Assembly: GCA_000004985.1 (NCBI GenBank)
Contig: GG738911.1
Source: Naegleria gruberi
Lineage: Eukaryota
Length of the DNA: 64,000 bases
Reading direction: 5' to 3' (one strand)
The translations under genes and the position numbers were made by a program. Positions 3,591 to 58,553 of the stretch are shown here, in pieces; position 1 is the first letter of the stretch; each line of letters begins with the position of its first letter. The notes beneath the pieces are model-generated. The model did not search any database. It had not been told where the DNA came from and worked only from the letters and a program-made list of their open reading frames with translations.

Positions 3591-5386
3591 CCTTGATAAT
3601 AATCTAATTTGAAACTTTCCAAAATATTATACGATTCGTCAACTACATTATTAGAATCTCCTTCAAACTTGTCTAAAACATAAAAAGGTCTCGATTGAGT
3701 TTCTGGTCTAATTTCAACTTTTTCAAAATAAACTGTCACATTCAAATTATCCAAATTATGATATTCAATATTTCTTGCATAATTCACAAACACTGCTTCC
3801 CCTAATACGGCAGTACTCTTATCGTAAATCCACAAACCAAATACTAAATTAGTGTTATTGTAAACTGTTGGATCAAATGCCCATTTAGCTTCTCCTAATT
3901 TAGGAATATCAGGTTGGAATAATTCAAAACTATTGGTTGATTCATTAAGAATTGTGACTCTCATTGAGAACGGATCCACATGTGGTTGCAATGAATTAGT
4001 ATACTCAAAATAAATCATATTATCCGAAACATCCAAACGATGTGCTGTAAAATCAATTGAAAATGCAAACTTTAAACTGAGTGGCTTTTGAATTGTCGAA
4101 GGAGCTGCATACTTTGAATAAATTGCAGTATTTTGATTGTTAATCATAAAACTTCCTGACAATTTGGAATTCTTATCAAAACTTGCAATCAAATTGTCAT
4201 ATTGTTCTCCATTTTTGAGTTCATAACTAGCAATCATGTATGAAGTAATTCCACACTCAGTTCCAAATTTGCATACAGCTCTAGTTCTGTCATCATACTT
4301 TCTGGCAAACATGAACAATGTAAAATCAGAAGTCAATTGTCTATCTGAACATGTCAACACAAACGATTGATAACTATTCACACTATTTCTGGAGGTAACT
4401 TCCAAAACTTGAGAGTTTTCATCCACGACTATTTTTCCATTCTCTTCATATGCACAAACTATTGACATTGGGTCAACAAATTTTGCAGTACGATCTAGTG
4501 ATGAATATGAAACAAATCCTGATTTTTTCGAATAATCAAATGAGATGCTCATTCGTTGATGGAGAGGAGTTGTTCCAACATTGAAAACTGACAGATCGAT
4601 GGCAATCAAATTGTAATCATAAGGTTCTGGAATTTTCACACCACCATCATAAGCATACTCTAATTGAATAGCTGGACTGCTGTCAATTTGATCTGGATCA
4701 ATGACAGGAGCATTGTCATATGACAGGAGAAGAATCATTTGTGAACTGTAATAAAACAATTGTCTTTCGATATCTCGTGGATAACTAATTCTAAGTTTTT
4801 GTTTGAAATCTCCTTCAACAATGGCTTTTACATAATATTGGAAAGCAATATAGTTTCTCTTCATGGATTGAAGTGTTGAAAAGGAAATTTCAAAAGAACT
4901 ATCTAAATGGTATAGTCCAGTATTATTGAAAGGAATAGTTTCCTTCTTGACGAAAGGATTCGACAATTTAACTCCGATTAGTTCCATTTCGTATGGATTG
5001 ATATTCTTCATCAATGCTCTGTTGAGCACCACTTGAACACTGCCATCTGTCATTCCACTTGCCAATGTAACATTTGACATGTCGAGAGTGAATATCCATG
5101 AAGCTAAATATTTTTTGGCATCAAATGGCGGAGTTGGATCGAAAATGTACTGCGTTTTAGTGTTGAGTACATAACTTCCTTGCAAATCTTTAAAATTCAA
5201 GCTCATTGCACCATGCAGGTTTGGAGTGGAAAGTTGGTAAATTGGAAGAATCGAATAATCTATCGGATAGGTGTAAGATAAATGTTGAAAGTGTCGGACA
5301 GGTGTTGAGTCAACTAGATGAAACAACGCTGTGAAGAGAAGCTGCACAACTAATAGGATGTGAGCGAAAGTGTGCACTTGTTTCAT
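3578..5386 (-). CDS. secreted / type-I membrane protein, N-terminal segment (signal peptide plus large ectodomain)
   Basis: 602-aa ORF starting with ATG. N-terminus 'MKQVHTFAHILLVVQLLFTALFHLVDS' is a signal peptide. No recognisable domain. Ends at a TGA that overlaps the start of the next ORF in the -1 frame. Confidence 0.6.
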   Translation of the reverse strand: MKQVHTFAHILLVVQLLFTALFHLVDSTPVRHFQHLSYTYPIDYSILPIYQLSTPNLHGAMSLNFKDLQGSYVLNTKTQYIFDPTPPFDAKKYLASWIFTLDMSNVTLASGMTDGSVQVVLNRALMKNINPYEMELIGVKLSNPFVKKETIPFNNTGLYHLDSSFEISFSTLQSMKRNYIAFQYYVKAIVEGDFKQKLRISYPRDIERQLFYYSSQMILLLSYDNAPVIDPDQIDSSPAIQLEYAYDGGVKIPEPYDYNLIAIDLSVFNVGTTPLHQRMSISFDYSKKSGFVSYSSLDRTAKFVDPMSIVCAYEENGKIVVDENSQVLEVTSRNSVNSYQSFVLTCSDRQLTSDFTLFMFARKYDDRTRAVCKFGTECGITSYMIASYELKNGEQYDNLIASFDKNSKLSGSFMINNQNTAIYSKYAAPSTIQKPLSLKFAFSIDFTAHRLDVSDNMIYFEYTNSLQPHVDPFSMRVTILNESTNSFELFQPDIPKLGEAKWAFDPTVYNNTNLVFGLWIYDKSTAVLGEAVFVNYARNIEYHNLDNLNVTVYFEKVEIRPETQSRPFYVLDKFEGDSNNVVDESYNILESFKLDYYQGWKL

Positions 5387-13788: not shown

Positions 13789-13866
13789 GTAGGTTTTGAA
13801 TTAAGGAAAATCAATAATAATTAATATTTATTTTACCTTCAAATAATGAATAATAATTTAACACAG

Positions 13867-18905: not shown

Positions 18906-19033
18906 CTATTATTCATCAATTGATCATTCATATCAGTGCGTAGGATTAAATGTATTGAATATTGTAAAATTATTGAAAATTATTGTAAAATATTAAATAT
19001 TAATCCAAATTGATCAAGTGATTCAAAACATAC

Positions 19034-19972: not shown

Positions 19973-22309
19973 ATGACAACAGACAGCCATCATCACTCGC
20001 TTCTCATACGACAATACATCTTTCTATCCTCCATTCTTCTTCTCCTTTTCGTCTTTTCACAAGTTTCGTCTCAAGATTATTACATTTCGAATACGGGATT
20101 TTTAGCTCCACAACCAGATGGAATAACATACAATGCAGGGAGTTTATATGTAGCCCTGAATGCTACCAATAGAATAGTCAAGTTTGACCTCACCTCGCAA
20201 CAAGTTTCGTATATTGCTGGAACTGGCCAGGAAGGTTTCGGTGGAGAAAACGAAATTGCGACCGAATCTCCTCTCCGAGCTCCATCAATTGCAAAACTGG
20301 CCTCTGATGGTACCATTTACATTACCGATTGTTCAAATGATAGAATTAGAAAGATTGTTGCTGGCAATGTTTCGACTCTAGTTTCGTCTATTTCATTGAG
20401 TCGACCTTTCGGATTAGATATTCATCCAATAAGTGGTGATTTGTACATTTCAGAATTAACTTCACGAATTGTCAAATTGACACCAAGTTCTGGAATAGCA
20501 GAAGCTTTGACTTTGAATGGAAATGGTTACAATGGAGATCAAATTCTAGCAATTTCTGCCAATGTCAACAATCCATTGCATATCCACGTGAAAAGTAATG
20601 GAGAATATTACTTTTTGGATTATGGAAATAATGCTATTCGAAAGGTGGATCTAAATGGATATATTTCTACAATAGTTTTGGGTGCATTTACTGCTATTGG
20701 TGGCGATCCTTTAATTAGTAATGAATTTTATTATGGAGGAGTTGGACAAATTTTCAAATATTCGAATGGATCATCTGTTCTAATTGCTGGTGGAGGAGTT
20801 TTGGATGTGGATGATGTTGATGCTAAAACTGTAATGTTTGGCCAAGTTTTTGGAATTACTTTGGGAGTGAGTGGTGAGGTTTACTTTTCAGATTATGGAA
20901 ATGGAAGAATTAGAAAGTTGGTGACATGTAGTGCAGGAACTTCCTATTCTGGCTATACTCATTCGTGTGTTTCTTGTTTTGGAGCAAGTGGTGCAGGGGC
21001 ATGTTCTGGAAATGGTGTTTGCATTAATAATGATGTTTGCGCATGTACTGTTTCAGGTTTTAGTGGAACTTATTGCAATGTTTCCGTTACTACTTGTTTT
21101 AACATTACAAGCGATCAGCCAACTACTTGTTCAGGTCATGGATCTTGCGTTTCTTTGAATAATTGTTCGTGTCTTTCTGGATATGATGCAATCGATTGCT
21201 CTGTCAACATTTCACCATTTGCAATGAGTACCAGTATTTCTTCAACCTCAGTTTCAGACTCTTCAGCAATTGGCATTCAAGCAATTTACTCTTCAGATGT
21301 TAATCCAACTTATTTCATTTGGGCTTGTACGAATTGTATCTATAAGGATTCGAATAATCAATTGCAATTTAGCAATATATCAAATACTGCCATTATTGAT
21401 GGTTCATTACTCAGTGTAGGAACTTATTCATTTACTGTTTATGGTATTTATGATAATGGACCTTCGTATCCAGCCAGAGTTTCGAATGTTGCCAATTTCC
21501 AAATCACAGTAATCAAATCAGTATTTTCTTCATCTTCGTTGGAGATTTATGGATTGCCATCGGTTGTGGTGGCTACAAACGCATCAAGCTCTCTCAACAT
21601 TATCATTCCACGACTTTCTCTCGATCAAACTCTCATTAATCAATTCTTGTCATGCAGTAACAGCTCAACAACATGTGGATTGTTAATTTCCTACAATGCT
21701 GCTCTGTCAATTACCAAGAACTCAATTACCTCCGTCATTTCAAGTTACAACGGTTACACCATGGCCAGTACAAATTTCATGAATAATACCATCACCTTTA
21801 CTCCATCTTTGAATTTTAAGGATAGTAATGCATATTCTGGCACTGAAATGATTCTCAATTTGGAGCTTACTGGTGCCACCAATTTGACCTTCTCTACTTC
21901 AGTACCAATTTATTCTTCAGCCACTCCACCACAAAGTACATCTGCAAATTCGACAGGTGGCGTGTTGGTTGATGTTTTGGGAATAGTGTCTCCATCATCA
22001 GGTAGAGCCCTCTCTGATCTTTTCACAATTACTTTTTCATCATGGACTGCAGCAGCTCAATTATTACCTTTGAAATATTCTGTTGGATTTGTAGATCCTG
22101 TTACTTCGAATGTGGTGAGAGTTACCGATTATACAGAGACCACTTCAGCTAATTTCATTCTTCCTTATCTTTCTTCGGTTTCTAATAGTAGAGGCCTTTT
22201 AGCTACTAGCTCGGTATCTGTAGTTGTTTTTGTGAATGATTCTATGGGAAATCAATATTCAAGTACTGTTCTCCCTATGCAGGAACAACGACAGAGTTGG
22301 TTTCTCTAA
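19973..22309 (+). CDS. adhesion-GPCR-like protein, ectodomain segment: signal peptide, NHL-type beta-propeller repeats, EGF-like repeats, S/T-rich region
   Basis: Signal peptide 'MTTDSHHHSLLIRQYIFLSSILLLLFVFSQVSSQ'. Repeats of the form 'YIAGTGQEGFGGE...DGTIYITDCSNDRIRKI'. EGF-like 'CSGNGVCINNDVCACTVSGFSGTYC', 'CSGHGSCVSLNNCSCLSGYDAIDC'. Confidence 0.75.
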   Translation: MTTDSHHHSLLIRQYIFLSSILLLLFVFSQVSSQDYYISNTGFLAPQPDGITYNAGSLYVALNATNRIVKFDLTSQQVSYIAGTGQEGFGGENEIATESPLRAPSIAKLASDGTIYITDCSNDRIRKIVAGNVSTLVSSISLSRPFGLDIHPISGDLYISELTSRIVKLTPSSGIAEALTLNGNGYNGDQILAISANVNNPLHIHVKSNGEYYFLDYGNNAIRKVDLNGYISTIVLGAFTAIGGDPLISNEFYYGGVGQIFKYSNGSSVLIAGGGVLDVDDVDAKTVMFGQVFGITLGVSGEVYFSDYGNGRIRKLVTCSAGTSYSGYTHSCVSCFGASGAGACSGNGVCINNDVCACTVSGFSGTYCNVSVTTCFNITSDQPTTCSGHGSCVSLNNCSCLSGYDAIDCSVNISPFAMSTSISSTSVSDSSAIGIQAIYSSDVNPTYFIWACTNCIYKDSNNQLQFSNISNTAIIDGSLLSVGTYSFTVYGIYDNGPSYPARVSNVANFQITVIKSVFSSSSLEIYGLPSVVVATNASSSLNIIIPRLSLDQTLINQFLSCSNSSTTCGLLISYNAALSITKNSITSVISSYNGYTMASTNFMNNTITFTPSLNFKDSNAYSGTEMILNLELTGATNLTFSTSVPIYSSATPPQSTSANSTGGVLVDVLGIVSPSSGRALSDLFTITFSSWTAAAQLLPLKYSVGFVDPVTSNVVRVTDYTETTSANFILPYLSSVSNSRGLLATSSVSVVVFVNDSMGNQYSSTVLPMQEQRQSWFL

Positions 22310-24927
22310 TCGGTTCATATGCCAGCTCTTCTCTTCTCACTGTTTTCAGTTATGACACCTCTCTTTCCGCTGCCAATTCTACTTCCTCAAGTGATGTTGC
22401 ATTGGAAATTGTGAAGAGTGTAGTAATTGATCCAAAGAATCCTACCACAGCTCTCACAGCCATTCAACAAGCTACCTCAAATCCAGAGGCTGTCGATTCT
22501 CGTGTCATTACTGAATTAACTAACAAGATTAATAATTTTGTAGCAACTCTCAATACTAATTACAAAGAAGAGAGAGCTCTTTATGGATTTGTCAAATCTA
22601 AATTGGCAACTGCTGACACAACAAGAACAACAGAAATTATTTCAAATGTTTTGGCAAGTGGAAGAGGAAATCAACAATCTAAGGGAATGGCAGATAATTT
22701 GACCAATTTATTAATTTTGGGAGAAATTGCCACATTATTAACTGGTCAGGATCAATCATCAGATGTTAACGAGTTGACCAAAGTTTCCTTCACATCTTCT
22801 CAATTGGATATTGCTGTTGCCGTCTTTACTTTGGATAAAGAAATGAATGGAACCAATCAAATGATTGGAGGTGATAATTCTGTAACCATGCCATTGTCAC
22901 AAATCACGAAACAATACAATGGATTCTCTAAAGAATCTGCCACTACCATGATCACCTATGATCAAAATATTTACTCTCAATCCAATGTTAGCGTCCTAAC
23001 TTCAACAGTGACTGATTTTAAATATTATCAAAATCAACAAGTTGTAACATTGGAGAATTTATCACAAAATATTGAACTCAAATTCAAAATTACAAATTCT
23101 ACAATTGTAATGGAAAAGATTATGGAATATATCAATAGTACAACTCAATTCAATTCAACCTCAAACAGCACCCAATCCAATTCTACTCTAGTGATGGCTT
23201 GCAAATATTGGGATGAATCTGCACTTGCTTGGAGCAGTAGAGGATGCTATCTGAAAGGATACAATTTGACAAGTCAAGAAATTCTCTGTTCTTGTTCTCA
23301 CACGACAATGTTCACAACCTTTGTGGAACAAAACACTTCGACAATTCCTGCTTCAGTGAAGGAAACAGTTGCTGCCTTTTATTATGGTCAAATTGCGTTG
23401 GGAATTTTCTATTTCTTGACTTCCATTGTCATTCTTTGTTTGTTGATTATTTTCAAGAATGAACAACCAATTTCATCTCGTTTGATTACTCCATACTTGG
23501 GAATGATTGCATTGATTGTGGAATCTCTTCTCGTTTACATTACACAAAGAGGTATTTTAGTGAGACAGTTGACTTCTACTTCAACTCAAATGTGGGAATC
23601 TGGAGATACTGATGCCAACACAATTGCAAACATTGTTCTCATATTTGCGAATACCATTAATTTGACAGCCATTTTATCTTATGTCATGCAAGTGTTGAGA
23701 TTCCAAGTTATGAAATACTTGTACGATTTATTGGCCTCCAGTAGAAATAATGAAAAGAAGAGCGATAGAATTTTGACAGTTTTGAGATTCTTGACATCTT
23801 CCTCATTGTTTTCCGCTATTTTAATTGTATTTGCAGTTATTAATGTATGCTATTGGGTCTTGTGGGTTGTTTTGAGAAGAACTGGAGTCCTTCCACCAGC
23901 AACATACACCTACATTGTTTCCATTTCGTATACGGTTATCATTTTCACATTTGGTGTCATTATTACATTGGTAGCAATCTTTGACTGGGTTGGATCTTCA
24001 GCCAAAGCAGGAATCAAAGCCAAGAGAAACTCCTCACTCACCAGAGAATCCAAATTCAAAATTGAAGAAGAAATTCAGAAGGAAATGGAAAAGTTTGATA
24101 TTTTCGAAAAGATTTACACAATTCTAGTAGGAATTGATGAACCATTGTATTTCAGAACTGAAATGATTATTTATGTGATTAGTTTCGTATTTTTAATCTT
24201 AAATCAAGTTATTGGATTGGTAGGAAATGAACTTAGATATGGAAATGAAGCCTCGTACAAGAAGGCGCTAATATTCGACTCCATTTCATTTATTTTCGAA
24301 GTTCTCTACGTGTTTACCTATTTATTTGTCTTTGGAGGATACTCTCTCATTCTATTACTCATTAGCAAGGTGAAAACATACAGAAATAACAAGGAAATGA
24401 AAAAATCTGCCAAGAAAAACATCAGCCAAGGTAGAGAAATCAACGAGGACATGTCACTTGTCTTTTCCAGCGATGAAGCCACTGAATTATTCGCCAGTTT
24501 CTGCGTTAAGGAATTCTCCTCTGAAAACTTTTATCTCTACTCAGATTTGAAAGAAAATACAGACATTATCGAAGGTAATAACATGCGAAAATTGCATCCA
24601 TATCTTCACTACATTCACGACACGTATGTGAAAGATGGCGCCAACTATCAAGTGAATATTCCAAACAAGTGCAGAACTAGTTTTATGAATCTGTTCAACA
24701 AGTATGCGAATGAGGTTTTGGAAATGTTGGATTCACAACTCAGTGAAAAGATCTCAACGGAAATAAGGAGTAGTTTTGAAATTCTAGTTCAGCAAATATT
24801 TGTCAATTTGGGAGATACCTTTTCAAGATTTGTATTTACTGTGGAATTTAAGGTTTTTAAGAAAGCATATGAACTTAGACAGGATATTTTGGAGGAATCT
24901 AATGTTGTTTTAATTGATGATGAGTAA
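22297..24927 (+). CDS. adhesion-GPCR-like protein, GAIN/GPS + 7TM + C-terminal RGS-domain segment, frame-shifted -1 from the previous ORF
   Basis: GPS motif 'CKYWDESALAWSSRGCYLKGYNLTSQEILCSCSHTTMFTTF'. Seven hydrophobic helices. RGS domain 'ELFASFCVKEFSSENFYLYSDLKE...QVNIPNKCRTSFMNLF...DTFSRFVFTVEFKVF'. This frame is open from 22240, so the break lies within 22240-22307. Confidence 0.75.
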   Translation: MVSLIGSYASSSLLTVFSYDTSLSAANSTSSSDVALEIVKSVVIDPKNPTTALTAIQQATSNPEAVDSRVITELTNKINNFVATLNTNYKEERALYGFVKSKLATADTTRTTEIISNVLASGRGNQQSKGMADNLTNLLILGEIATLLTGQDQSSDVNELTKVSFTSSQLDIAVAVFTLDKEMNGTNQMIGGDNSVTMPLSQITKQYNGFSKESATTMITYDQNIYSQSNVSVLTSTVTDFKYYQNQQVVTLENLSQNIELKFKITNSTIVMEKIMEYINSTTQFNSTSNSTQSNSTLVMACKYWDESALAWSSRGCYLKGYNLTSQEILCSCSHTTMFTTFVEQNTSTIPASVKETVAAFYYGQIALGIFYFLTSIVILCLLIIFKNEQPISSRLITPYLGMIALIVESLLVYITQRGILVRQLTSTSTQMWESGDTDANTIANIVLIFANTINLTAILSYVMQVLRFQVMKYLYDLLASSRNNEKKSDRILTVLRFLTSSSLFSAILIVFAVINVCYWVLWVVLRRTGVLPPATYTYIVSISYTVIIFTFGVIITLVAIFDWVGSSAKAGIKAKRNSSLTRESKFKIEEEIQKEMEKFDIFEKIYTILVGIDEPLYFRTEMIIYVISFVFLILNQVIGLVGNELRYGNEASYKKALIFDSISFIFEVLYVFTYLFVFGGYSLILLLISKVKTYRNNKEMKKSAKKNISQGREINEDMSLVFSSDEATELFASFCVKEFSSENFYLYSDLKENTDIIEGNNMRKLHPYLHYIHDTYVKDGANYQVNIPNKCRTSFMNLFNKYANEVLEMLDSQLSEKISTEIRSSFEILVQQIFVNLGDTFSRFVFTVEFKVFKKAYELRQDILEESNVVLIDDE

Positions 24928-24953: not shown

Positions 24954-25955
24954 TTAGTCATGTTTATTGGCTATTTCGATTGGATTTTCTTCAAGTGGTT
25001 GGGAAGAAAGTTCATTGCGAATAGTTTCGTCTTCATTTACTTTACTTTCGTCTTCGCTGGTTTCCGTAGTTTCTTTGGATTCTTCTTGTGTTGCTTTTTC
25101 AGGAGAGTTTTCCACATTTTCTTGTTCGTTCTCTTCCCTTGTTTCTTCCCTATTATCTGAGCTTTCAATTTCAACATTCGAATTTTCCATTTTGGCTAAT
25201 ATTAAAGTTTCATGGTATGAATTTCGATTATCAGGATCTAATTCCTTTACTTTCGAATGATCATGAACTGCCTTTTCATTTTGATTCAACTTTTGGAAAG
25301 CAAATCCTCTATAATAAAAAGCATGAACATTATTCGAATCTAATTCAATAACATCGGACAAATCTTGCACTGATTTTTCATTCTCTTCTAACAATGCATA
25401 GAATTTACCTCTCTTTTCCAGAGAAACCTTGAACAGGTCATCATTTTCATTCGAAAGTTCAATAACTCTTGTCAAATCAGAAATGGCATCTGAAAGATTA
25501 TCCAAAATTCGGTTCGTAAGTCCTCTATGAAACAGAGCTTGAACATGATCAGGCTCTTTCTCAATAAAAACGTTCAAATCATCGAGAGCTTCATTTTCCT
25601 TTCGAATTCTAATTCTGGAAATTCCTCGATATAGAAATACCATATCTGTTCCACCAAATTCGATAACTTTAGAAAAATCAGAATCTGCCTTCTTAAAATC
25701 CTCAATTTTGAAAAGATTCAATCCTCTATACAAGTAAGCATCCAGAAAAGTTTCGTCTAATTCAATAACTTTCGAATAATCATCAATTGCTTTCTTTCTA
25801 TCAAGTAGACATCCGAAAGCAGTCGCTCTTTGATAATAATTCATTGCATTTTCTTCCAGTTCAATAACTTTGGTAAAATATTCTACAGCTTTCGAATAAT
25901 CTTGCTCATTAAAAAACTTTCGTCCACTTTCTTTCAACGATTGAATGTTTTCCAT
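24954..25955 (-). CDS. TPR-repeat protein with acidic C-terminal tail
   Basis: 333 aa with ATG. About 7 TPR-like units, e.g. 'YSKAVEYFTKVIELEENAMNYYQRATAF...KAIDDYSKVIELD'. E/S-rich tail. Confidence 0.8.
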   Translation of the reverse strand: MENIQSLKESGRKFFNEQDYSKAVEYFTKVIELEENAMNYYQRATAFGCLLDRKKAIDDYSKVIELDETFLDAYLYRGLNLFKIEDFKKADSDFSKVIEFGGTDMVFLYRGISRIRIRKENEALDDLNVFIEKEPDHVQALFHRGLTNRILDNLSDAISDLTRVIELSNENDDLFKVSLEKRGKFYALLEENEKSVQDLSDVIELDSNNVHAFYYRGFAFQKLNQNEKAVHDHSKVKELDPDNRNSYHETLILAKMENSNVEIESSDNREETREENEQENVENSPEKATQEESKETTETSEDESKVNEDETIRNELSSQPLEENPIEIANKHD

Positions 25956-26276
25956 TTTTTTTTATCGTAATTTTTTCCAAACCTTTCAACCTTAATGACC
26001 AATCAATTCAATCATCCCAAACCATCAACATTGTAAACATTCTAGTGCCCTTCCAATTTCTGCCTTAAATAACTCTATCAATTCTGGCCTTTCGAAAATT
26101 CTTCCAATTCAAAAAGAATTAGGCGCCAAAGAGCAAATCAATAAAAAAAAACATTAAAAAAAAATTAGCGTTAAAACTCGGCAGCGATTTTTTGCGTGTT
26201 GAAAAAAAACCTTGCTTGTGTGATCATCACGAATTTTCATCATCAAAATTAATTTATTTATTAGCGTCTTTGAAAA

Positions 26277-27041
26277 ATGACTTTAACTCATACAAATCAA
26301 CCAAGTTATGGAGCAACTCAATACGGACAACAACCACAATATATGCCTCCACAAGGTTATCCACAACAACCACAATATGCACAACAACCGCAAATGGGAT
26401 ATCAACAACCAATGATGGCTCAAACAACAGTCATTTCAACTCCATCCAATTTACAACAATATCCAAATGGTGGACCTGTTATGGAGACAATTATTGACAC
26501 ACGAATTTCTTCTGGTACTTTCCTCTCTTTGAATTTATCACCACAACTCTTGTCGAACACTTTGGGAGCTTATGGTTTTCCAAATGCTGCCAATGCTCCA
26601 GCCGATATTGAAAATAACATTATTAGACCAATCAATAATTTATTCACTCAATTCTACAACAAATCATCCAATTATGATACCTACTACATGATCTCGTTTA
26701 TTATCTTGATGATTTTAATCATTTTAACAGCTGGTTTGGGTGTAGTATTCATTTTCATCATCTTCGTCTTCCCATATTTGAAGAATAGACACATTTCATC
26801 CTTCAATGAAACTACTCAGATTCAAGTGAGAAACCTTTTACAAAAGGAAAATCAAAACAAGTATATGCCACACGGTTTGGAATGGGTTATTCTCTATGAA
26901 GTGAAACCAGGAACTAGTTCTCTCTTTACTGGTTTCACCTGTATGCAAGAAGCCAGTTTGAAACTCATTCGTGTCAGTAGACAAGTCCCAACTGTCACTA
27001 CAACTGTCACACAACAACAAGACACTTTGGTAATGAACTAA
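26277..27041 (+). CDS. single-TM protein with Q/P/Y-rich N-terminus; member 1 of a three-paralogue family
   Basis: 254 aa. Motifs 'YPNGGPVMETI', 'DIENNIIRPINNLFTQFY', TM 'YYMISFIILMILIILTAGLGVVFIFIIFVFPYL', and 'LLQKENQNKYMPHGLEWVILY'. The same motifs occur in 31559..32609 and 32724..33743. Confidence 0.6.
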   Translation: MTLTHTNQPSYGATQYGQQPQYMPPQGYPQQPQYAQQPQMGYQQPMMAQTTVISTPSNLQQYPNGGPVMETIIDTRISSGTFLSLNLSPQLLSNTLGAYGFPNAANAPADIENNIIRPINNLFTQFYNKSSNYDTYYMISFIILMILIILTAGLGVVFIFIIFVFPYLKNRHISSFNETTQIQVRNLLQKENQNKYMPHGLEWVILYEVKPGTSSLFTGFTCMQEASLKLIRVSRQVPTVTTTVTQQQDTLVMN

Positions 27042-27182
27042 AATTGTAAATATGTATTAAATAATTTATTTATTCCTAGTAGATTTCCTAGATTCTTTTA
27101 GATCAATTCGATTCTCAGTTAAAATTATAAATAATAATTTATAATAATTTATAATATCAATTATCAATTATCATTAATTTGA

Positions 27183-29892: not shown

Positions 29893-29938
29893 GTAGGTTT
29901 TGAAAATTAAAATTAGGATCGGAATTGACCATTGACAG

Positions 29939-30040: not shown

Positions 30041-30095
30041 GTGAGTTTTTAAGAATTGAATTAGAGAAATGAAATGTTTCGAAAATACTTAATAG

Positions 30096-31558: not shown

Positions 31559-31810
31559 ATGCTGATGATGAATTCCTCATCACCCACTACTTCCTCACAA
31601 CTCGTAGTAGATGATCATGAGGGATCGACACCAAATTCCAGCACTGAAATTAACTTCCTCTCACCTACCACTCTCTCGGATGGTCCATTTACTTCATCTA
31701 CATTAACTTCCCCAACAAATTCTCTATCTATTCTTTCCAGTCAGCAACTAACTTCACAACAATTAATTGCCTCATCAAATTCTTCAACCTCTGATCAACA
31801 ACATATCTGA
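31559..31810 (+). CDS. family member 2, S/T-rich N-terminal segment (frame 1)
   Basis: ATG at 31559, 'MLMMNSSSPTTSSQLVVDDHEGSTPNSSTEINFLSPTTLSDGPFTSSTLTSPTN...'. Overlaps the next ORF by 44 nt in the +1 frame. Confidence 0.5.
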   Translation: MLMMNSSSPTTSSQLVVDDHEGSTPNSSTEINFLSPTTLSDGPFTSSTLTSPTNSLSILSSQQLTSQQLIASSNSSTSDQQHI

Positions 31811-32609
31811 GAGACTTCCCAGAACAAGTTTTATAGCTCAACGAAAGGAAGAATCAGAGAGACCATATGTTCTCTCTCCACACTCAACAGTGTTGATTCA
31901 TGAATATCCGAATGGTCCTATCAGGGAGAAATTAGTTGAAATGGTTTATTCTCCATTGGATACTCAACAATATTTGAGATTTGCTGGTGGGAGAGCAATT
32001 GAGAATATGAAGGGAACTCTACGACATTATGGATATTCGAGGGATATGCATTCGATTGTGGAAGATGTGGAAACTAATTTAGTATTTCCATTAAATAGAA
32101 TATTGGAGAGACATCAATTGATTAGTTCTCACTATGAAATGTATTTTAAAATGTTGCTAAATTCATTAATATTTATTGCAATCATTACTTTGGGATGTGG
32201 ATTGGTGTTCTTTCCATGTTTGTTACTAATTCAATATTTACATTGGAAACATGTGAAAAATTATGATAAGAATGTGAAAGAGAGAATCCACAGAATTTTA
32301 GAAAGAGAAAATAAGAAGTATCTTCCTTATGGTTTCGAATGGATTATCAAATATAGCATAATCAATTCTGACAAGAAGAGGACATGTGTAGGAATAAGGA
32401 CAGAATTGGCATGTGTCCAAGAGGTTGTTCTTTCGCTCATCCATGTTCGATCTAATCCCTTCTCTTCCAAAATAGGGTCACCTCCATTGTCAAGTTTCAG
32501 CTCTGTAATTTCATCTTCTTCAAGCATTGTGAAGGAAACACCATCGTCAATTAATGGAAATCCTGCTCTTTCAGAAGAAACCACTCCTTCAACAAGTAAT
32601 CAACTTTAA
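31767..32609 (+). CDS. family member 2, main segment (conserved motifs plus TM); no in-frame ATG before the conserved region
   Basis: Motifs 'EYPNGPIREKLVEMV', 'DVETNLVFPLNRILERH', TM 'YFKMLLNSLIFIAIITLGCGLVFFPCLLLIQYL', 'ILERENKKYLPYGFEWIIKY'. The first in-frame ATG lies downstream of 'YPNGPIRE', so the N-terminus must come from the 31559 frame. Confidence 0.6.
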   Translation: MPHQILQPLINNISERLPRTSFIAQRKEESERPYVLSPHSTVLIHEYPNGPIREKLVEMVYSPLDTQQYLRFAGGRAIENMKGTLRHYGYSRDMHSIVEDVETNLVFPLNRILERHQLISSHYEMYFKMLLNSLIFIAIITLGCGLVFFPCLLLIQYLHWKHVKNYDKNVKERIHRILERENKKYLPYGFEWIIKYSIINSDKKRTCVGIRTELACVQEVVLSLIHVRSNPFSSKIGSPPLSSFSSVISSSSSIVKETPSSINGNPALSEETTPSTSNQL

Positions 32610-32723: not shown

Positions 32724-33743
32724 ATGGTCGTATCCAAATATGGCAAATTACTTTCCATTCAAGATTGCAGCAATCCAACAAACGGCGCGCTCATTAATTA
32801 TCAAACAATAAAAAAAACCACCACAACCTCCATCCCAAGAGGATTGCATCCCTACTACTCCTCGTTATCCTCATATTGTTGGATTCTCTTCAACTTGCTA
32901 ACCTCCTCAACCACCCTTAATAACAGTAGAGCACAGAAACGTAAAATGCAGCAGAGGTCTTCATCAATATATTGTGTAAATTCAGTCTCAGTGATCTCTC
33001 CACAAACTACTAATCAGACAAATAATCAGAGTTTCAGATCTCCATCGCGGAATGTTTATAAAACTTCGTCATCTTCTTCTCCCTCAGTAAATCCACATCG
33101 ACACGAATCAACAATTCGAATACCAAAACCATCCTATGTGGTCGTTCAGCAACAGGATACGACCACCACAATTTTAACCGAGTCTCAATTTCCCAATGAT
33201 GGTCCTAAAGTGGAAGTTTTATTGCAAACGAAAATTGGAATGAAAGGTCCTAATTTTTCGATTAGTAATTCTGGGTCATTGATTGGGTGTTTGGAACAGT
33301 GTGGAATGTCAAATTCGATAGAAATGGTGACGGATATTGAGTCTTCTATTTTAAAACCTTTAAATTCTCTATTTTTGGAATACTATGCCAAATTTAGAAA
33401 ATATGAAATGCTGTATTTAATAATGATACTTGTAGCAGTAGGAATTATAATCATGACAATGGGATTAGGCCTTGCCTTTGCTTTAATAATATTCATCCCA
33501 AAAATTTTGAAAAATCGACAATTTGCCAATTTTGGAAAAATTAAAGAAAAAATTCGACTACTTTTAGAAAGAGAAAATCAAACCAAATATTTACCCTACC
33601 ACATGGAATGGGTTATTCAATACGGAATTTCTCCTCCAGAAAACAATCCAGACGATCAAACACTCGATGGAAGATGCATCCAAAATGCTACTTTACAATT
33701 ATTAAGAGTTAAAATCGAATCAGAATTGGAAGAAATTATTTAA
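32724..33743 (+). CDS. family member 3 (single TM, S/T-rich N-terminus)
   Basis: 339 aa. Motifs 'FPNDGPKVEVLL', 'DIESSILKPLNSLFLEYY', TM 'LYLIMILVAVGIIIMTMGLGLAFALIIFIP', 'LLERENQTKYLPYHMEWVIQY'. Confidence 0.6.
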   Translation: MVVSKYGKLLSIQDCSNPTNGALINYQTIKKTTTTSIPRGLHPYYSSLSSYCWILFNLLTSSTTLNNSRAQKRKMQQRSSSIYCVNSVSVISPQTTNQTNNQSFRSPSRNVYKTSSSSSPSVNPHRHESTIRIPKPSYVVVQQQDTTTTILTESQFPNDGPKVEVLLQTKIGMKGPNFSISNSGSLIGCLEQCGMSNSIEMVTDIESSILKPLNSLFLEYYAKFRKYEMLYLIMILVAVGIIIMTMGLGLAFALIIFIPKILKNRQFANFGKIKEKIRLLLERENQTKYLPYHMEWVIQYGISPPENNPDDQTLDGRCIQNATLQLLRVKIESELEEII

Positions 33744-33843: not shown

Positions 33844-35439
33844 ATGGAATCACCTCTGAAAAAGAAGAAACTCAATCACGCTGCGGAAGAAAAAGAGAAA
33901 AATATTGATTCCGATGATGATGATCAGAATAATGATGAAAATGTAAAAATAATATTATCTAATGATGATGGTTTAATGGAAAGTATTCTATTGAAGAAGA
34001 AACTTGGAGGAAACAAAATTAGAACTCTCAATACAAAGATCACACTCTCCGAGGTTTCTATTGATTGTCTTGCAAATGATGATGTGCAGATTCGAATATG
34101 TCACCAGAAAAAGTTATTGTTTCTTAGTTGTTGCAAAAATATTCACATTTACAATTATGAGGAAGATTTGAAACTTGTTAGGAAAATTAATGTGAAATTT
34201 GATAGTTTTGAAGTCGATAGTGTTGGTGAACACTTGTTTGTAATCTCAATTAGTGGCATGTCAAAATATAGACTTGATGACATGTCAGAATTGTGGACTT
34301 TTAGAGAAAACGTGTATTGTTTTACTATTAGTGAATCCAGAAATGAAATTTTCATTCCCAATAATTTGGAAGTTAACGTTTTGGATATGAATGATGGCTC
34401 AGTCAAGAGGAAAATTCCATTTCAATTAAGCCAAGGTTATTGCGCAGATATTGTCTATGATGAAGAGGAGGAAACCATTTATCTATCAGTTAATGTTGAT
34501 AGTTTTGAAGTTTATGACTTCAAATTATTAATAGTTTCAGAAAAAACTAGAACACAAACTGAACTTGTTTGTGATCAGAGATTTAGCCATCTCTTCTTCT
34601 ATGAAAGATATCTTGTATATATCACAGTAGTGGAAGTAGTCTATCTTTTTGAAAAGAAAACTAATAATTTATTATTAACATTTAAATTGGATAAAATTAG
34701 ATATTACAATTCCTATTTTGATAGATTAACCAATACTTTAATATATCTAAATAGACAGAAAATATGTTTTAAAAAGTTACACATTGAGGAAAATATTATT
34801 GAAACTCCACTCAACAAGGAGATTTGTCTTGCACTTGAGAAATTTGGAGGCAAATTACCATCTTTCATTCCAAAAGTTCAAGTTTTAAACGAATTTGTTA
34901 TTCCAGAATGTTTACAATATCTATGGAGAGTTGAGTTTGAAAATTCAAAGTTTTGGTATATTGAGAAAGAGATTGCAAAATATGTTTCTTTTCGAGATTG
35001 TAACTTTGGATACATTACTGAAAGATGGATGGGAAAAGATGATATTCTCTTAATTGGAGATTGTCCAACAAGTTCAGAATTGGAAAATAACAAGTTTGCC
35101 CTCTGTATCTTTGTAAAGAAAGAGGAAGTTTCCAAGGTATCAAATGGCGACTTTTCAATTTATTTGCGTTACTTTGATGAATCTTCTTATGATTATATTA
35201 TTCAGAGTTTCAAATTTTCAGAATTTGTTTCAAAATTGAGTGTTGCAGAACTTGTAAAATTAGAAGACTTTTCAGAATATTTGATTCATTTTGAAAAGAN
35301 NNNNNNNNNNNNNNNNNNNNNNNNNNNNNNNNNNNNNNNNNNNNNNNNNNNNNNNNNNNNNNNNNNNNTAAGAAAGATTAACAATATACTGTTACAGATG
35401 GTTTGGCATCAAATAAAGAAAAATTGGAATGAAAATTGA
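33844..35439 (+). CDS. clustered lineage-specific family, copy 1 (interrupted by the assembly gap)
   Basis: Starts 'MESPLKKKKLNH...DENVKII...LKKKLGGNKI...FEVDSVGEHLF...LDMNDGSVKRKI...IIETPLNKEICLALEKFGGKLPSFIPKVQ...VIPECLQYLWRVEFENSKFWYIEKEI...DFSIYLRY'. These motifs are shared with 46395..48092, 48179..49867 and 49911..51740. The N-run falls in the C-terminal part, so the C-terminus is unreliable. Confidence 0.6.
   Translation: MESPLKKKKLNHAAEEKEKNIDSDDDDQNNDENVKIILSNDDGLMESILLKKKLGGNKIRTLNTKITLSEVSIDCLANDDVQIRICHQKKLLFLSCCKNIHIYNYEEDLKLVRKINVKFDSFEVDSVGEHLFVISISGMSKYRLDDMSELWTFRENVYCFTISESRNEIFIPNNLEVNVLDMNDGSVKRKIPFQLSQGYCADIVYDEEEETIYLSVNVDSFEVYDFKLLIVSEKTRTQTELVCDQRFSHLFFYERYLVYITVVEVVYLFEKKTNNLLLTFKLDKIRYYNSYFDRLTNTLIYLNRQKICFKKLHIEENIIETPLNKEICLALEKFGGKLPSFIPKVQVLNEFVIPECLQYLWRVEFENSKFWYIEKEIAKYVSFRDCNFGYITERWMGKDDILLIGDCPTSSELENNKFALCIFVKKEEVSKVSNGDFSIYLRYFDESSYDYIIQSFKFSEFVSKLSVAELVKLEDFSEYLIHFEKXXXXXXXXXXXXXXXXXXXXXXXXRKINNILLQMVWHQIKKNWNEN
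35300..35368. other. assembly gap (69 N)
   Basis: A run of n characters. This is a draft scaffold join of unknown true length. Confidence 0.95.
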
Positions 35440-37400: not shown

Positions 37401-37532
37401 ATGCAATTTAAATACGTTATTGCCGCCCTTATGGTGATGGTATGCCTCTTGGCTCCAACCATGATGGTTAAAGCTGAAAAGTCAGTTATGGGATGTGAAA
37501 TCTGTGAATGGTTGGTTGCTACCGCCGAAGGT
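37401..37532 (+). CDS. multi-saposin (SapB domain x5) amoebapore/saposin-like secreted protein, exon 1
   Basis: 'MQFKYVIAALMVMVCLLAPTMMVKA' is a signal peptide, then 'EKSVMGCEICEWLVATAEG'. Donor GGT|GTAGGT. Confidence 0.75.
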
Positions 37533-37649
37533 GTAGGTATTTTCTTGTAATTTTTATGATCTCTAATGATGATGCTGATGAAATATTGTTGTATTATTAA
37601 TATCTTGGTGATGATGATGATTTTATTATAATGCGCAAAATATCTTCAG

Positions 37650-37908
37650 TTGGTTAACAAGACCAAGCCACAAATCGAACAAGAATTGTTGCAAGTCTGC
37701 TCCAAGTTGGGTCCATATGAACAACTCTGTGACCAAATGGTCTTGATGGAATTGCCAGATATTATCGATGCTATTATTGCTAAGGAACCACCAGCAATTG
37801 TCTGTGCTCAAGTTAAGATCTGTGCCAACTCTTCTGCTCCAGCTATTGCTACTGCTCCAAAGGACTCTGGTATCTGTAACATGTGTCAATTGGTTGTTAC
37901 TCAAGTTG
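37650..37908 (+). CDS. saposin-like protein, exon 2 (intron 1 = 37533..37649, 117 nt)
   Basis: Acceptor cttcag|TTG. Encodes 'LVNKTKPQIEQELLQVCSKLGPYEQLCDQMVLMELPDIIDAIIAKEPPAIVCAQVKIC...GICNMCQLVVTQV'. Donor G|GTATGT, phase 1. Confidence 0.75.
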
Positions 37909-38072
37909 GTATGTTTTATAACCGTTAATTGTTGTTTTTGTGTATTAACTAATTAATTCTTTTAATATTTGATAATGATGAAAATAATTATCACATGATT
38001 ATTCATGATTATTATCCAAACACTTGATGCGCTATTTGACGTTTTAAAAATCGATATCATTCACAATAATAG

Positions 38073-38806
38073 AAAACTGGGTTGAAAGCAATGATACTAT
38101 CATGACTTTGGAAAAGAAGTTGGAACAAGTCTGTAATGTTATTCCAGGACAATACTCCACTCTCTGTACTTATGCTGTTGAACAATACTTGCCAACTTTC
38201 ATTCACCAAGTTGAACAACAATACTCTCCATTGGTCATTTGTCAAGATGTTAGTTTGTGCTCAAAGCAAGAAGCTCCAAAGGTTGTTGCTCCACAACCAG
38301 CTGCTGCTGAATTGTGCCCAATCTGTAAGGCTGCTGTCGGTTTCTTGAAGTCCAAGATCTCCACTGTTGATGTCCCAACCATCAAGAAGCAATTGGAATT
38401 CGCTTGTACTTTCTTCCAAGTTGAAGATTGTCAACAATTGGTTGATAAGGCTGCTGATATTGCTCAAGCCATCCAAACTGAAGATGCTAATACCATCTGT
38501 TCATCTGTTGTTGATGTCTGCCCAAAGGAACAAGTTACCTTGAAGGCTCAATGGAATCCATTCAAGAAGTTCCTCGAAGCTAAGAATGCCAAGTATTGTC
38601 CAACTTGTTTGGCCATTACCCAATATTTGGAAAATGCCATCACTTCTGATGTTGCTGTTGCTGAACTCATCAAGATTGCTGACCTCGGTTGTGCCAAGTT
38701 GGGTTCTTTGGAATCTCTCTGTACCAAGTTTGTTCCTCTTGCTGTTGACGAATTGAAGAAGTCATCCTCGAAAAGGTTACCCCACAAAAGGTCTGTTCCA
38801 CTTTGA
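38073..38806 (+). CDS. saposin-like protein, exon 3, first frame (intron 2 = 37909..38072, 164 nt)
   Basis: Acceptor aatag|AA gives 'QVENWVESNDTIMTLEKKLEQVCNVIPG...', with the 6-Cys SapB spacing repeated. The frame closes at 38806 inside the fourth SapB domain. Confidence 0.7.
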
Positions 38807-39156
38807 AGATGTGTGATGCTGCTGATAAGATGTCTCTTGCTGCTCCAGTTATTGCTGCTAAGGTTGAAGATTCCTCAATGTGTCTTGGTTGTGAATATGT
38901 TATTGGTGTTGCTGACAACTGGTTGATTGCTAACAATACTCAACAATCTGTTGAATCCACTTTGGATATGGTCTGTAACGACTTTGTTCCATCTGTCTAC
39001 AAGTCTCAATGTGTTGCTTTGGTTGCTCAATACACTCCACAACTCGTCCAACTCTTCGAAGCTAAGGTCTTTAACCCACAAACTGTCTGTAAGGCTATTG
39101 GTGTCTGTACCTCTGCTAAGAGACAAGCTATCAACAAGCAAATCCAAATGAACTAA
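38803..39156 (+). CDS. saposin-like protein, continuation after a frame break (last 1.5 SapB domains)
   Basis: 'MCDAADK...MCLGCEYVIGVADNWLIANNTQQSVESTLDMVCNDFVPSVYKSQCVALVAQYTPQLVQLFEAKVFNPQTVCKAIGVC'. The Cys spacing continues only if the frame changes between ~38750 and 38806. Confidence 0.7.
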   Translation: MKMCDAADKMSLAAPVIAAKVEDSSMCLGCEYVIGVADNWLIANNTQQSVESTLDMVCNDFVPSVYKSQCVALVAQYTPQLVQLFEAKVFNPQTVCKAIGVCTSAKRQAINKQIQMN

Positions 39157-43756: not shown

Positions 43757-44512
43757 TTAAATATTGTTATATTTCAAAAAACAAACCTGTTCCAAAGAAT
43801 CAATACTTTCCATAATTTCATCACCCTCATAATCAGTCATGGGTGAACGTCCTACTTTATGTGGTGTTAATCCCTGCTCATCAGGCGTTAAATAGCCATT
43901 TGCATTATAATTATCCAAATCTTCAATATCTTCCTCAATATCAGTCGTTCCGGTACAACTCGTATCGACAGAATACCTCATATCATCATTACTAAACGAA
44001 CCTTTCGACTTCATGCCGCCTCCTGGTATAATAACTTTCAGATTTTGTTGTTGTTGTTGTTGTTGAGGTGTTTGCAAATAGCTGGCGAGAGAGAGGCTTG
44101 ATGGAACTTGTTGCTGCTTAATAAAAACTCCCCCAAAGTTTTGATTATTTTTTAGGGTAGAAGAAAAATTTTGTTGATTTCCCGCCAAAGAAGATGATGA
44201 TGAAGAAGACTGTGAGGAACAACTGCTTGGAGTTTGTAGGTGGATATTCGGAGGAGGATTTGAGTAATAGTTATTATTGTTATTGCTGTTATTATTATAA
44301 TTAGAGTTATTGTTGCTGTTGTTATTGAGGGAAGCTAAGGAAACGAGACTTCCTAATTGTTGCTGTTGTTGAATGTAATAATTATTTGATGATGATGATG
44401 ATGAATTTATATTATTATTATTATTATTATTATTCATATTATTATTTGAAAATATTATTAGTGAGGTTGATAGTGGCTGGAGGAGTAATAAGCAATGGCA
44501 AATTATTGCCAT
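43757..44512 (-). CDS. N/Q/S-rich low-complexity protein with acidic C-terminus (segment 2)
   Basis: Poly-N tracts and a C-terminal 'DIEEDIEDLDNYNANGYLTPDEQGLTPHKVGRSPMTDYEGDEIMESIDSLEQ'. Confidence 0.45.
   Translation of the reverse strand: MAIICHCLLLLQPLSTSLIIFSNNNMNNNNNNNNINSSSSSSNNYYIQQQQQLGSLVSLASLNNNSNNNSNYNNNSNNNNNYYSNPPPNIHLQTPSSCSSQSSSSSSSLAGNQQNFSSTLKNNQNFGGVFIKQQQVPSSLSLASYLQTPQQQQQQQNLKVIIPGGGMKSKGSFSNDDMRYSVDTSCTGTTDIEEDIEDLDNYNANGYLTPDEQGLTPHKVGRSPMTDYEGDEIMESIDSLEQVCFLKYNNI
44411..44434. repeat. (ATT)8 microsatellite (AAT on coding strand; poly-Asn)
   Basis: Sequence attattattattattattattatt. Confidence 0.7.
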
Positions 44513-44732
44513 TATTATAATTATTATTATTATAATTATTAGTGTTTCCTCCTCCGAACATCATATTGTTTGTATTATTGGAAAGGTTTGAATAATTATT
44601 GTTGGGATTTCGTTCGCCAACGAGAATTATATTATTGGTGGCATTGGTCGTGCTGGTCATGTAATTGTTGTTATTGGTTTGTATGGGAGTGAGTCTCTTT
44701 TTAAAGAGTTGAGCTCGATTGTTATTGTTCAT
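44442..44732 (-). CDS. N-rich low-complexity ORF (segment 1), probably the N-terminus of 43757..44512 with a +1 frame break in the overlap
   Basis: The two ORFs overlap by 71 nt within an (AAT)n-rich region. Confidence 0.4.
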   Translation of the reverse strand: MNNNNRAQLFKKRLTPIQTNNNNYMTSTTNATNNIILVGERNPNNNYSNLSNNTNNMMFGGGNTNNYNNNNYNNGNNLPLLITPPATINLTNNIFK

Positions 44733-49867: not shown

Positions 49868-49910
49868 AAGAGTACATCAAAATTATTTATTTCCTTAATT
49901 TCCTAAAAAA

Positions 49911-53078: not shown

Positions 53079-53123
53079 GTAAGTTTTCATGTTAGAAATT
53101 GTTTTTGATTCACACAACAACAG

Positions 53124-53855: not shown

Positions 53856-53899
53856 GTAAGTAGATGAGAAATCTTCATGTTCTAACAATATTATTTCAG

Positions 53900-58501: not shown

Positions 58502-58553
58502 AAAGCAAAATGTTCCACACAAGTTCAATAGTTTACAAAAAACATCAAAAAAA

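Follow-up and report, generated by a model that had tools for sequence, protein, structure and literature searches.

Consensus errors as the most probable explanation for five single-base frame breaks in a 64-kb window of the Naegleria gruberi draft genome

The window analyzed here is a stretch of 64,000 nucleotides on contig GG738911.1 of the Naegleria gruberi assembly GCA_000004985.1. The GenBank/RefSeq proteins of strain NEG-M (EFC and XP accessions) match the ORFs of the window exactly, and the record belongs to the ACER WGS project, in which these proteins map to one scaffold of 261,328 bp. A run of 69 Ns between positions 35300 and 35368, through which the ORF at 33844-35439 passes, is a scaffold gap and marks the assembly as unfinished. 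Five genes of the window, designated b1 to b5, are each divided between two long ORFs that lie on the same strand in different frames and overlap by 41 to 116 nt. In b1, b2, and b4, the downstream frame begins 1 base earlier, so that a base is missing from the record, whereas in b3 and b5 it begins 1 base later, leaving a surplus base. These breaks, with their positions and directions, and the 69-N gap had been listed in a preliminary description, and we found all of them in the sequence. The stretch in which both frames were open was defined as the break zone, and the best changeover in codon score was taken as the switch point. Scanning every pair of ORFs on the same strand of the window brought out no further true break. 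Candidates at 49868-49910 and 58502-58553 were rejected as short spacers separating genes with AAAAATG starts, and an in-frame stop at 53093 and a frame change at 53860 were both assigned to real introns.

The b1 gene (1596-5386, negative strand) encodes a large membrane protein built of repeats, about 1263 aa in length when repaired. Its two ORFs, 602 and 664 aa long, are internal repeats of each other (blastp, 4e-21) and are united in a single public model, EFC38104.1 (NAEGRDRAFT_74103). One base is missing somewhere within 46 nt (3581-3626), with the best codon-score switch at 3587-3592. The public model passes this zone by means of a 41-nt "intron" at 3592-3632 on the negative strand, which reads GTATAA...TCAAG and has GT..AG ends.

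The b2 gene (19973-24927, positive strand) encodes a receptor of 1651 aa when repaired, with Pfam domains on both ORFs in the arrangement NHL/EGF ... GPS-7TM-RGS; its public model, EFC38054.1 (NAEGRDRAFT_53256), has only 1125 aa. Insertion of one T yields a stop-free ORF of 1651 aa that is colinear with an N. fowleri relative and with N. gruberi paralogs, and the N. fowleri locus of that relative displays no synteny with the window. Both frames are open where the ORFs overlap, between 22240 and 22306, and alignment with the same relative and paralogs places the break at 22252-22270. The upstream frame is good through ...VVVFVNDSMGN and the downstream frame is good from SPYAGTTTEL, and b2 aligns with the homologs up to its last residues. 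The missing base would most simply be accounted for by GTTCT in place of GTTTCT. When the public model was mapped onto the window, it contained two false introns. The first (22002-22282, positive strand, 281 nt, donor GTAGAG) cuts out a 94-residue segment conserved throughout the aligned homologs. The second (23551-24469, positive strand, 919 nt, donor GTATTT) drops the 7TM region, and the RGS region is then read out of frame, whereas the alignment with the homologs runs unbroken through this part of the gene (query 10-891).

The b3 gene (31559-32609, positive strand) encodes an orphan protein with a single TM segment, about 350 aa when repaired. One extra base lies within 31767-31810, where both frames are open up to 31807, and the best switch point, at 31804-31808 (CATATC/TGA/GAG), places it outside any homopolymer or repeat. 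A tandem paralog is found at 32724-33743. Residue 16 of the downstream b3 ORF (nt ~31812) aligns with residue 132 of the paralog (E value of 1e-21), and the homology begins right at the break, on its downstream side only. The junction I-(E)-R-L-P-R-T-S-F resembles the paralog motif I-R-I-P-K-P-S-Y, as judged from the alignment and from reading the sequence. The public protein, EFC38058.1, is 100% identical to the window over 222 aa and starts at an internal Met (MVYSPL), 43 residues inside the region homologous to the paralog.

The b4 gene (37401-39156, positive strand) has exons at 37401-37532, 37650-37908, and 38073-39156, with the intron donors GTAGGT and GTATGT, and lacks 1 base within 38749-38803. 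This break had been thought beyond repair by a single indel. That proved to be wrong: with the downstream frame open from 38749 onward, one base inserted at AAGAA^GTC produces a secreted five-saposin protein of 491 aa. Placed at ~38757-38762 (TTGAAGAA^GTC), the insertion restores the Cys4-Cys5 spacing of 24 residues. The repaired protein has four SapB_1 and four SapB_2 matches, and the C-terminal half of SapB_2 (VTPQKVCSTLKMC) is found only after the one-base repair. With a codon score of 0.41 per codon, b4 is the most codon-optimized multi-exon gene in the window.

The b5 gene (43757-44732, negative strand) encodes an orphan rich in Asn, Ser, and Gln, about 325 aa when repaired. Its start ATG at 44732 lies in an A-rich context with a 330-nt spacer upstream. 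The break zone (44445-44560) has 1 extra base, and the best switch, at 44445-44452 (ATTTTCAAA/TAA), coincides with a T4 run adjoining an (AAT)n tract. Within the zone, the product of the upstream frame is N rich, as is usual for this gene, and the downstream frame encodes poly-Ile until ~44455.

Sequence comparison indicates that b2, b4, and b3 are not chance overlaps of ORFs, given the colinear homologs, the split saposin domain, and the paralog homology that starts at the break, respectively. Gene structure suggests that b1 and b5, too, are single broken genes, which for b1 agrees with the internal repeats and the single public model. Each of the five breaks amounts to one base gained or lost in a gene that is otherwise intact. 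The frames are open and coding is normal on both sides of the breaks, with scores of 0.20 to 0.41 per codon, and the half-genes, which range from 83 to 876 codons, contain no further stop or shift. Against the five frameshifts, we counted no nonsense codons; the sole in-frame stop sits in a real intron.

These properties contradict the earlier suggestion of a set of pseudogenes, if decayed genes are meant. That each reading frame is interrupted would agree with it. However, every gene has exactly one lesion, the parts downstream of the breaks (117 to 876 codons) are still free of stops in their new frame at a genomic GC content of 33%, the coding scores are normal, and b2 aligns with its homologs to the last residues. 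The lack of secondary lesions thus argues against old pseudogenes, and we regard slow decay as a very improbable origin of the five genes.

On an ORF map, an intron between two open segments looks just like one of the breaks, in that the frame either changes or runs into a stop, and short introns are genuine in Naegleria. We derived a local donor consensus, GT[AG][ATG]GT, from the eight clear introns of the window, which is a small sample. These introns are 44 to 164 nt long, and their donors are frequently followed by TTT. Two positive controls, at 53079-53123 (45 nt) and 53856-53899 (44 nt), have consensus donors and were both recovered. By contrast, we examined 78 distinct phase-compatible donors lying up to 400 nt from one of the five breaks, and none of them conforms to the consensus.

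The breaks could still be very short spliceosomal introns with nonconsensus sites, like the 41-nt intron of b1 and the 281-nt intron of b2 in the public models, and the existence of genuine 44- and 45-nt introns in the window speaks for this reading. However, removal of the candidates deletes conserved protein at b2, where the 94 residues would be lost, at b4, where any intron would remove saposin cysteines, and at b3, where the candidates cut residues conserved in the paralog. The exception is b1. Its candidate is phase compatible and bounded by GT..AG, its GC content of 8/41 (19.5%) falls within the range of real introns (18 to 29%) and is matched by only 1.4 to 2.4% of coding windows, and the repeat alignment is at least as good without the 41 nt. 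On the other hand, its donor lacks the G5/T6 present in eight of eight clear introns of the window. Read in the upstream frame, the segment is stop free and scores 0.35 per codon, as normal coding sequence does; only 2% of intron windows score so high. The peptide SYNILESFKL, which lies inside the annotated intron, was considered as a conserved element of the repeat and rejected, as multiple alignment puts the conserved motif at YVLDKFEGDS. The 41-nt segment is probably an annotation device that bridges the shift, and a real intron at b1 is unlikely. The earlier statement that no intron explains the breaks stands for b2 to b5, with no consensus donor and, at b2, b3, and b4, conserved sequence at stake, and is not fully safe for b1, given the GT..AG segment in the public model. 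Taking the five together, we consider short nonconsensus introns an improbable explanation.

Two overlapping ORFs in neighboring frames that yield one protein are also the layout of programmed ribosomal frameshifting, which would have to act as a -1 shift at b1, b2, and b4 and, where the upstream ORFs of b3 and b5 meet their stop codons, as a +1 shift. Several sequences are compatible with this. In b2, the in-frame heptamer G GGA AAT at 22246 leads into the downstream frame. The upstream ORF of b5 ends in AAA TAA, the motif of +1 shifts in Euplotes, and that of b3 ends in ATC TGA, whose stop codon coincides with the best switch point. However, b1 and b4, which are two of the three -1 breaks, lack a slippery X XXY YYZ heptamer of the kind found at viral and cellular -1 sites. 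If the ribosome slipped at the b2 heptamer, the product would read MGK, but GN is retained there in five homologs, namely, the N. fowleri relative and four paralogs, and the alignment puts the b2 shift 6 to 20 nt beyond the heptamer. No stimulatory structure was apparent: compared with shuffled sequences, the RNA downstream of the -1 sites folds ordinarily (z scores of -1.08, -1.07, and +2.53), the value in the b1 zone being -1.07. A break of the +1 type trivially permits a shift at its own stop. Finally, the directions of the breaks are mixed, and two opposite mechanisms would be required in one 64-kb window, a -1 heptamer and the +1 route of antizyme and Euplotes. Programmed frameshifting thus seems to us exceedingly unlikely. 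Hardly more credible is a composite in which the indels are real in the DNA and full-length proteins are nevertheless made, by ribosomal frameshifting at b2 (G GGA AAU), b5 (AAA UAA), and b3 (AUC UGA) or by nonconsensus micro-introns such as that of b1 (GUAUAA, 41 nt). If recoding did operate, it would be common in Naegleria, affecting about one gene in six in the window.

The main rival to consensus error is that the indels are real. They would then be frameshift null alleles, either recent or heterozygous, of lineage-specific genes that the long-cultured axenic clone NEG-M can do without, and the collapsed assembly would by chance have taken the broken haplotype. The strain is reported to be heterozygous, a state in which real null alleles could persist. 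All five broken genes are lineage specific, family members, or of low complexity, and the 10 conserved-domain genes of the window (~18 kb) are unbroken. This is the pattern expected of selection acting on real mutations, although it is not statistically significant (~0.13). Heterozygous clonal microbial eukaryotes likewise display one recent lesion per gene, in nonessential lineage-specific genes, in collapsed diploid assemblies, and the absence of any second lesion is as compatible with very recent or sheltered alleles as with errors. In addition, only 7 of 303 conserved BUSCO genes were fragmented in the N. gruberi assembly (PMC6125883). This is fewer than a uniform rate of one frameshift per 10 kb suggests, although BUSCO is tolerant of shifts that a gene model bridges.

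A metagenome contig (ENA ERZ929261, run ERR1078381, PRJEB11402) from a wild strain is 97.7% identical to positions 25441-27110 of the window, so that its nearer end lies 3 kb from the b2 break. Relative to NEG-M, its 320 nt of spacer carry five indels, while ~1.28 kb of coding sequence carries none, which indicates that real indel polymorphism is common in the species. Exact look-ups with the window ORFs adjoining the breaks returned no independent contigs over the five sites, and no relatives were detected in the JGI metagenomes by a protein-pattern scan or by a DNA-pattern scan across the saposin break.

Weighing against real alleles is the number of genes affected. Five broken genes out of ~31 would translate into ~2,000 null alleles genome-wide, each with one lesion. 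Such a proportion, with no nonsense codons beside the five frameshifts, would be odd for real variation in a heterozygous clone, and no second haplotype was seen. Moreover, b4 is broken inside a disulfide-bonded domain in spite of its optimized codons, and the b3 insertion lies in no repeat. Overall, real frameshift alleles are a possible but not a favored source of the five indels; if they were the source, a laboratory clone would be carrying a heavy load of null alleles.

We consider it somewhat more probable than not that the five indels are consensus errors in the unfinished NEG-M draft, an assignment that draws on the sequence and its annotation. The errors would have arisen in base calling or when the consensus was built, the draft having later been neither finished nor polished. 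The cell would make full-length proteins, and the breaks would be confined to the record. The public annotation bypassed the shifts, through nonconsensus introns in b1 and b2 and through an internal start in b3. Unfinished shotgun drafts display the same combination of single-base shifts in intact ORFs, in both directions, in short runs, and with a gap nearby, as well as the same annotation artifacts, namely, nonconsensus GT..AG bridges of the kind found in b1 and b2 and an internal Met start as in b3. Five breaks in ~53 kb of coding sequence amount to a rate of ~1e-4 per base. About 1e-4 indels per base is within expectation for an unfinished, low-coverage draft. Literature searches turned up no published frameshift rate for the N. 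gruberi draft.

The sequence contexts of the breaks are runs of 2 to 4 bases or, in b3, no run at all. Together with the mixed directions of the shifts, such contexts (runs of 0 to 4 nt) fit miscalled bases better than any one biological mechanism. They are unlike those in pyrosequencing and nanopore drafts, where long homopolymers are typical, and the N. gruberi draft was presumably obtained by Sanger sequencing. The preliminary description had attributed the breaks to homopolymer or low-complexity errors; with runs of only 2 to 4 nt that rationale is weak, whereas indel error as such is, on balance, the reading that we favor.

The finding is an ordinary one, and its value is practical and concerns annotation. 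The preliminary description had anticipated that such breaks would harm automated gene calls, and this is borne out in the window, where a false intron, or in b1 a probably false one, spans the break of b1 and of b2, and the b3 protein begins only at an internal Met. The public b1 model may have lost 14 residues, the b2 model has lost 94 conserved residues and the whole 7TM region, and the b3 model has lost its N terminus. A match of the donor to GT[AG][ATG]GT offers a quick local test that separates genuine 44- to 45-nt Naegleria introns from frame errors. If the rate in the window holds genome-wide, about one in six to seven genes of the widely used N. gruberi reference could be split, truncated, or furnished with an invented intron. 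Faulty models of this kind distort comparisons of gene content, domain architectures, intron counts, and "orphan" proteins.

Five genes in the window are each represented by two long same-strand ORFs in neighboring frames, which overlap by 41 to 116 nt. In b1 (1596-5386, minus strand; both frames open at 3581-3626), b2 (19973-24927, plus strand; 22240-22306) and b4 (37401-39156, plus strand; 38749-38803), the downstream frame lies one base earlier, and a base is therefore missing from the record. In b3 (31559-32609, plus strand; 31767-31807) and b5 (43757-44732, minus strand; 44445-44560), the downstream frame lies one base later, and the record therefore contains an extra base. All five breaks reported in the preliminary description are thus present in the sequence, as are the directions it assigned, three "-1" and two "+1." When all pairs of coding-looking open segments on the same strand were scanned across the window, no further true break emerged. 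An in-frame stop at 53093 and a frame change at 53860 proved to be introns, and the candidates at 49868-49910 and 58502-58553 (plus strand) were intergenic spacers. At these spacers, consecutive same-strand genes are as little as 43 to 52 nt apart, and the start codons of the flanking genes have the context AAAAATG.

The window has a GC content of 33% and densely packed long ORFs with eukaryotic domains (protein kinase, LRR, ankyrin, VWA, EGF/NHL, GPS, RGS, and saposin). Several ORFs are residue-for-residue identical to GenBank/RefSeq proteins of N. gruberi NEG-M, all on one 261,328-bp scaffold: 153-1319 (EFC38103.1), 9274-12654 (EFC38051.1), 14997-16964 (EFC38053.1), 26277-27038 (EFC38055.1), and 60255-61769 (EFC38113.1). 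Given these matches and a run of 69 N at 35300-35368, the window belongs to the unfinished public draft of WGS project ACER, which we take to be an approximately 8x Sanger assembly. A 531-codon ORF at 33844-35439 (plus strand) is open only by running through the 69-N gap, so that its 3' end and its frame past 35300 are candidates only.

The best-resolved break is that of b2, whose upstream ORF encodes NHL and EGF domains and whose downstream ORF encodes a GPS motif, a multi-pass membrane region, and an RGS domain. A HMMER search with the downstream ORF recovered the public model of the gene (EFC38054.1), an N. fowleri relative with 50% identity, and four N. gruberi paralogs; every relative has a long N-terminal extension. 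The aligned homologs are continuous over the junction. They support the upstream frame to ...VVVFVNDSMGN and the downstream frame from SPYAGTTTEL, which narrows the lesion to about 20 nt, 22252-22270. Adding one T (GTTCT to GTTTCT) yields a 1,651-aa protein without interruption. The public model excises 22002-22282 as an "intron" (donor GTAGAG), with the loss of 94 residues conserved in all aligned homologs. It also excises 23551-24469 (919 nt, donor GTATTT), which removes the whole 7TM region and puts the end of the protein, within the RGS domain, in the wrong frame. Both "introns" are modeling artifacts; the first is caused by the frameshift, and the second is unrelated to it. The N. fowleri relative (Logan SRR29240419) is flanked by EF-hand, MBOAT, RNase T2, mitochondrial carrier, UCH, and saposin genes, and comparison of this whole locus with the window revealed no synteny.

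The saposin gene, b4, starts at 37401 with a signal-peptide-like sequence, contains two consensus introns, and is broken between cysteines 4 and 5 of its fourth saposin domain. It had been described as not restorable by a single indel. This is incorrect, because one base inserted at TTGAAGAA^GTC restores a protein of 491 aa in which SapB_1 and SapB_2 each match four times, and because the downstream frame is already open at 38749, ahead of the first-frame stop at 38804. When the fourth domain was analyzed in isolation, the C-terminal half of SapB_2 (VTPQKVCSTLKMC) was found only after the repair. The Cys4-Cys5 spacing of the repaired translation is 24 residues, the value also found in two of the four sister domains, which range from 22 to 25.

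For b3, the public model (EFC38058.1, 222 aa) begins at an internal Met. The neighboring gene at 32724-33743 (plus strand) is a tandem paralog with 28% identity (E value of 1e-21); the alignment pairs its residue 132 with residue 16 of the downstream ORF of b3, at about nt 31812. Homology therefore begins a few bases from the upstream ORF stop and 43 residues ahead of the annotated start; the downstream frame contains no ATG upstream of this point. The N-terminus of the paralog is Ser/Thr-rich over 131 residues, as is the 83-residue upstream ORF of b3. The extra base likely lies at 31804-31808 (CATATC TGA GAG), outside any repeat. In the orphan family formed by the two genes, a Ser/Thr-rich N-terminus is combined with a single TM helix and the conserved motif ERENxKYLPYxxEWxIxY; the family had no Pfam match, and no homologs were found beyond N. 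gruberi.

Both ORFs of b5 are Asn/Ser/Gln-rich. The upstream ORF has an ATG start in an A-rich context, 330 nt from the preceding gene, and reads as a typical N-rich protein through ...LTNNIFK. Over that stretch the downstream frame encodes poly-Ile and becomes plausible only from about 44455. The simplest repair is to drop one T from the T4 run at 44449-44452. Judged from ORF composition, b5 is probably a true break and is the least secure of the five.

Introns offer another explanation for ORFs that change frame. The window contains eight plain introns, seven of which were mapped at both ends: 13789-13866, 30041-30095, 37533-37649, 37909-38072, 53079-53123, and 53856-53899 on the plus strand and 18906-19033 (donor at 19033) on the minus strand. 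Only the donor, at 29893 (plus strand), was mapped for the eighth. The seven span 44 to 164 nt, with a GC content of 18 to 29%. All eight donors follow the consensus GT[AG][ATG]GT (as GTAGGT, GTATGT, GTGAGT, or GTAAGT), usually with TTT next. The 5' splice site is strongly constrained, and no branch-site motif of comparable strength was evident in these introns. The extended donor motif GTAGGTTTTGAA was seen twice and the near-identical GTATGTTTTGAA once. Two introns with GTAAGT donors, 53079-53123 (45 nt) and 53856-53899 (44 nt), link 52472-53078, 53124-53855, and 53900-56670 into one EGF-repeat gene (52472-56670, plus strand). An in-frame TAG interrupts one of them, and the other shifts the frame. 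They serve well as positive controls, being indistinguishable from the breaks on an ORF map.

For each break, we listed every GT..AG pair of at most 400 nt whose removal restores the frame and leaves no stop at the junction. There were 10 to 132 such pairs per break, with 3 to 26 distinct donors, an abundance that chance would produce. Of the 78 distinct donors, none matched the consensus, whereas the identical procedure recovered both control introns. By this test the five breaks do not appear to be consensus introns; since the consensus is drawn from eight introns, the evidence is strong but not absolute.

The preliminary description ruled out introns at every break, which needs a reservation at b1. 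The two ORFs of this gene (602 and 664 aa) derive from the same internal repeat of ~290 residues (blastp, 4e-21 between halves). After the repeats come a Pro-rich spacer and a C-terminal TM segment; b1 had no Pfam family, and the homolog search returned only its own public model. That model (EFC38104.1) joins the ORFs into a single gene via a 41-nt intron, 3632..3592 (GTATAA...TCAAG). The GC content of this segment (8/41) is typical of introns and found in only 1.4 to 2.4% of coding windows. The repeat-unit alignment places its 14 residues in a variable-length loop, so their removal would be tolerated, and rules out a conserved repeat motif within it. However, the donor has neither G5 nor T6, both of which occur in 8/8 clear introns. 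In the upstream frame, the segment reads as 14 ordinary codons with no stop; at 0.35 per codon, its score ranks at the 60th percentile among coding windows and is attained by only 2% of intron windows. Moreover, the same annotation bridged b2 by a false intron. We favor a frameshift at b1 and regard a real intron as a credible, less probable reading.

Translational frameshifting could also decode the breaks, by -1 at b1, b2, and b4 and by +1 at b3 and b5, but these mixed directions would require two mechanisms. No in-frame -1 slippery heptamer was found in b1 or b4. In b2 there is one, G GGA AAT at 22246, but a shift there gives MGK, whereas the N. fowleri relative and the four paralogs, five homologs in all, retain GN, and homology sets the frame change 6 to 20 nt downstream. 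RNA folds 3' of the three "-1" sites were unremarkable (z of -1.08, -1.07, and +2.53). The "+1" breaks end in AAA TAA (b5) and ATC TGA (b3), where a +1 shift at the stop is feasible, but trivially so for any such break.

We lean slightly toward the view that the five indels are errors in the draft record. An unpolished, unfinished assembly would have introduced single-base errors into five otherwise intact genes. Consistent with this, the draft is unfinished and has a gap inside the window; each lesion affects one base, with both gains and losses represented, and the surrounding runs are 0 to 4 bases long; five frameshifts were found as opposed to no nonsense codons; and b4, a secreted and strongly codon-optimized protein, is broken within a disulfide-bonded domain. 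The breaks occur at ~1 per 10 kb of coding sequence in the window, and such a frame-error rate is ordinary in unpolished drafts. The short runs do not bear out homopolymers as the source of error, as had been proposed. Old pseudogenes, one sense of the "set of pseudogenes" offered earlier, are excluded, since each gene has a single lesion and its coding scores are normal on either side. With the saposin, homopolymer, and intron points corrected, the original observation is essentially right and its interpretation reasonable, if unproven.

Real recent or heterozygous alleles are a possible though less likely source of the indels. At the observed rate, real variation would amount to about 2,000 null alleles with one lesion each. 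On the other hand, the broken genes are exclusively lineage-specific, family, or low-complexity (not significant, about 0.13), and only 7 of 303 conserved BUSCO genes are fragmented in the N. gruberi assembly (PMC6125883), which fits real alleles. Indel polymorphism is also clearly common in the species. An environmental metagenome strain (ENA ERZ929261, run ERR1078381) is 97.7% identical in DNA to NEG-M over 25441-27110, a span without any break. The five indels between them, mostly A/T-run length changes, all fall in a 320-nt spacer, with none in 1.28 kb of coding sequence, and the 254-aa protein differs by one substitution. An ONT and Illumina re-assembly of N. gruberi, Illumina genomic reads, and RNA-seq exist (PMC12695648).

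The window repeats the familiar pattern of draft-genome frame errors and the annotation artifacts that result from them. The breaks are not a new biological feature; their value is that they flag mis-modeled genes in a much-used reference genome.
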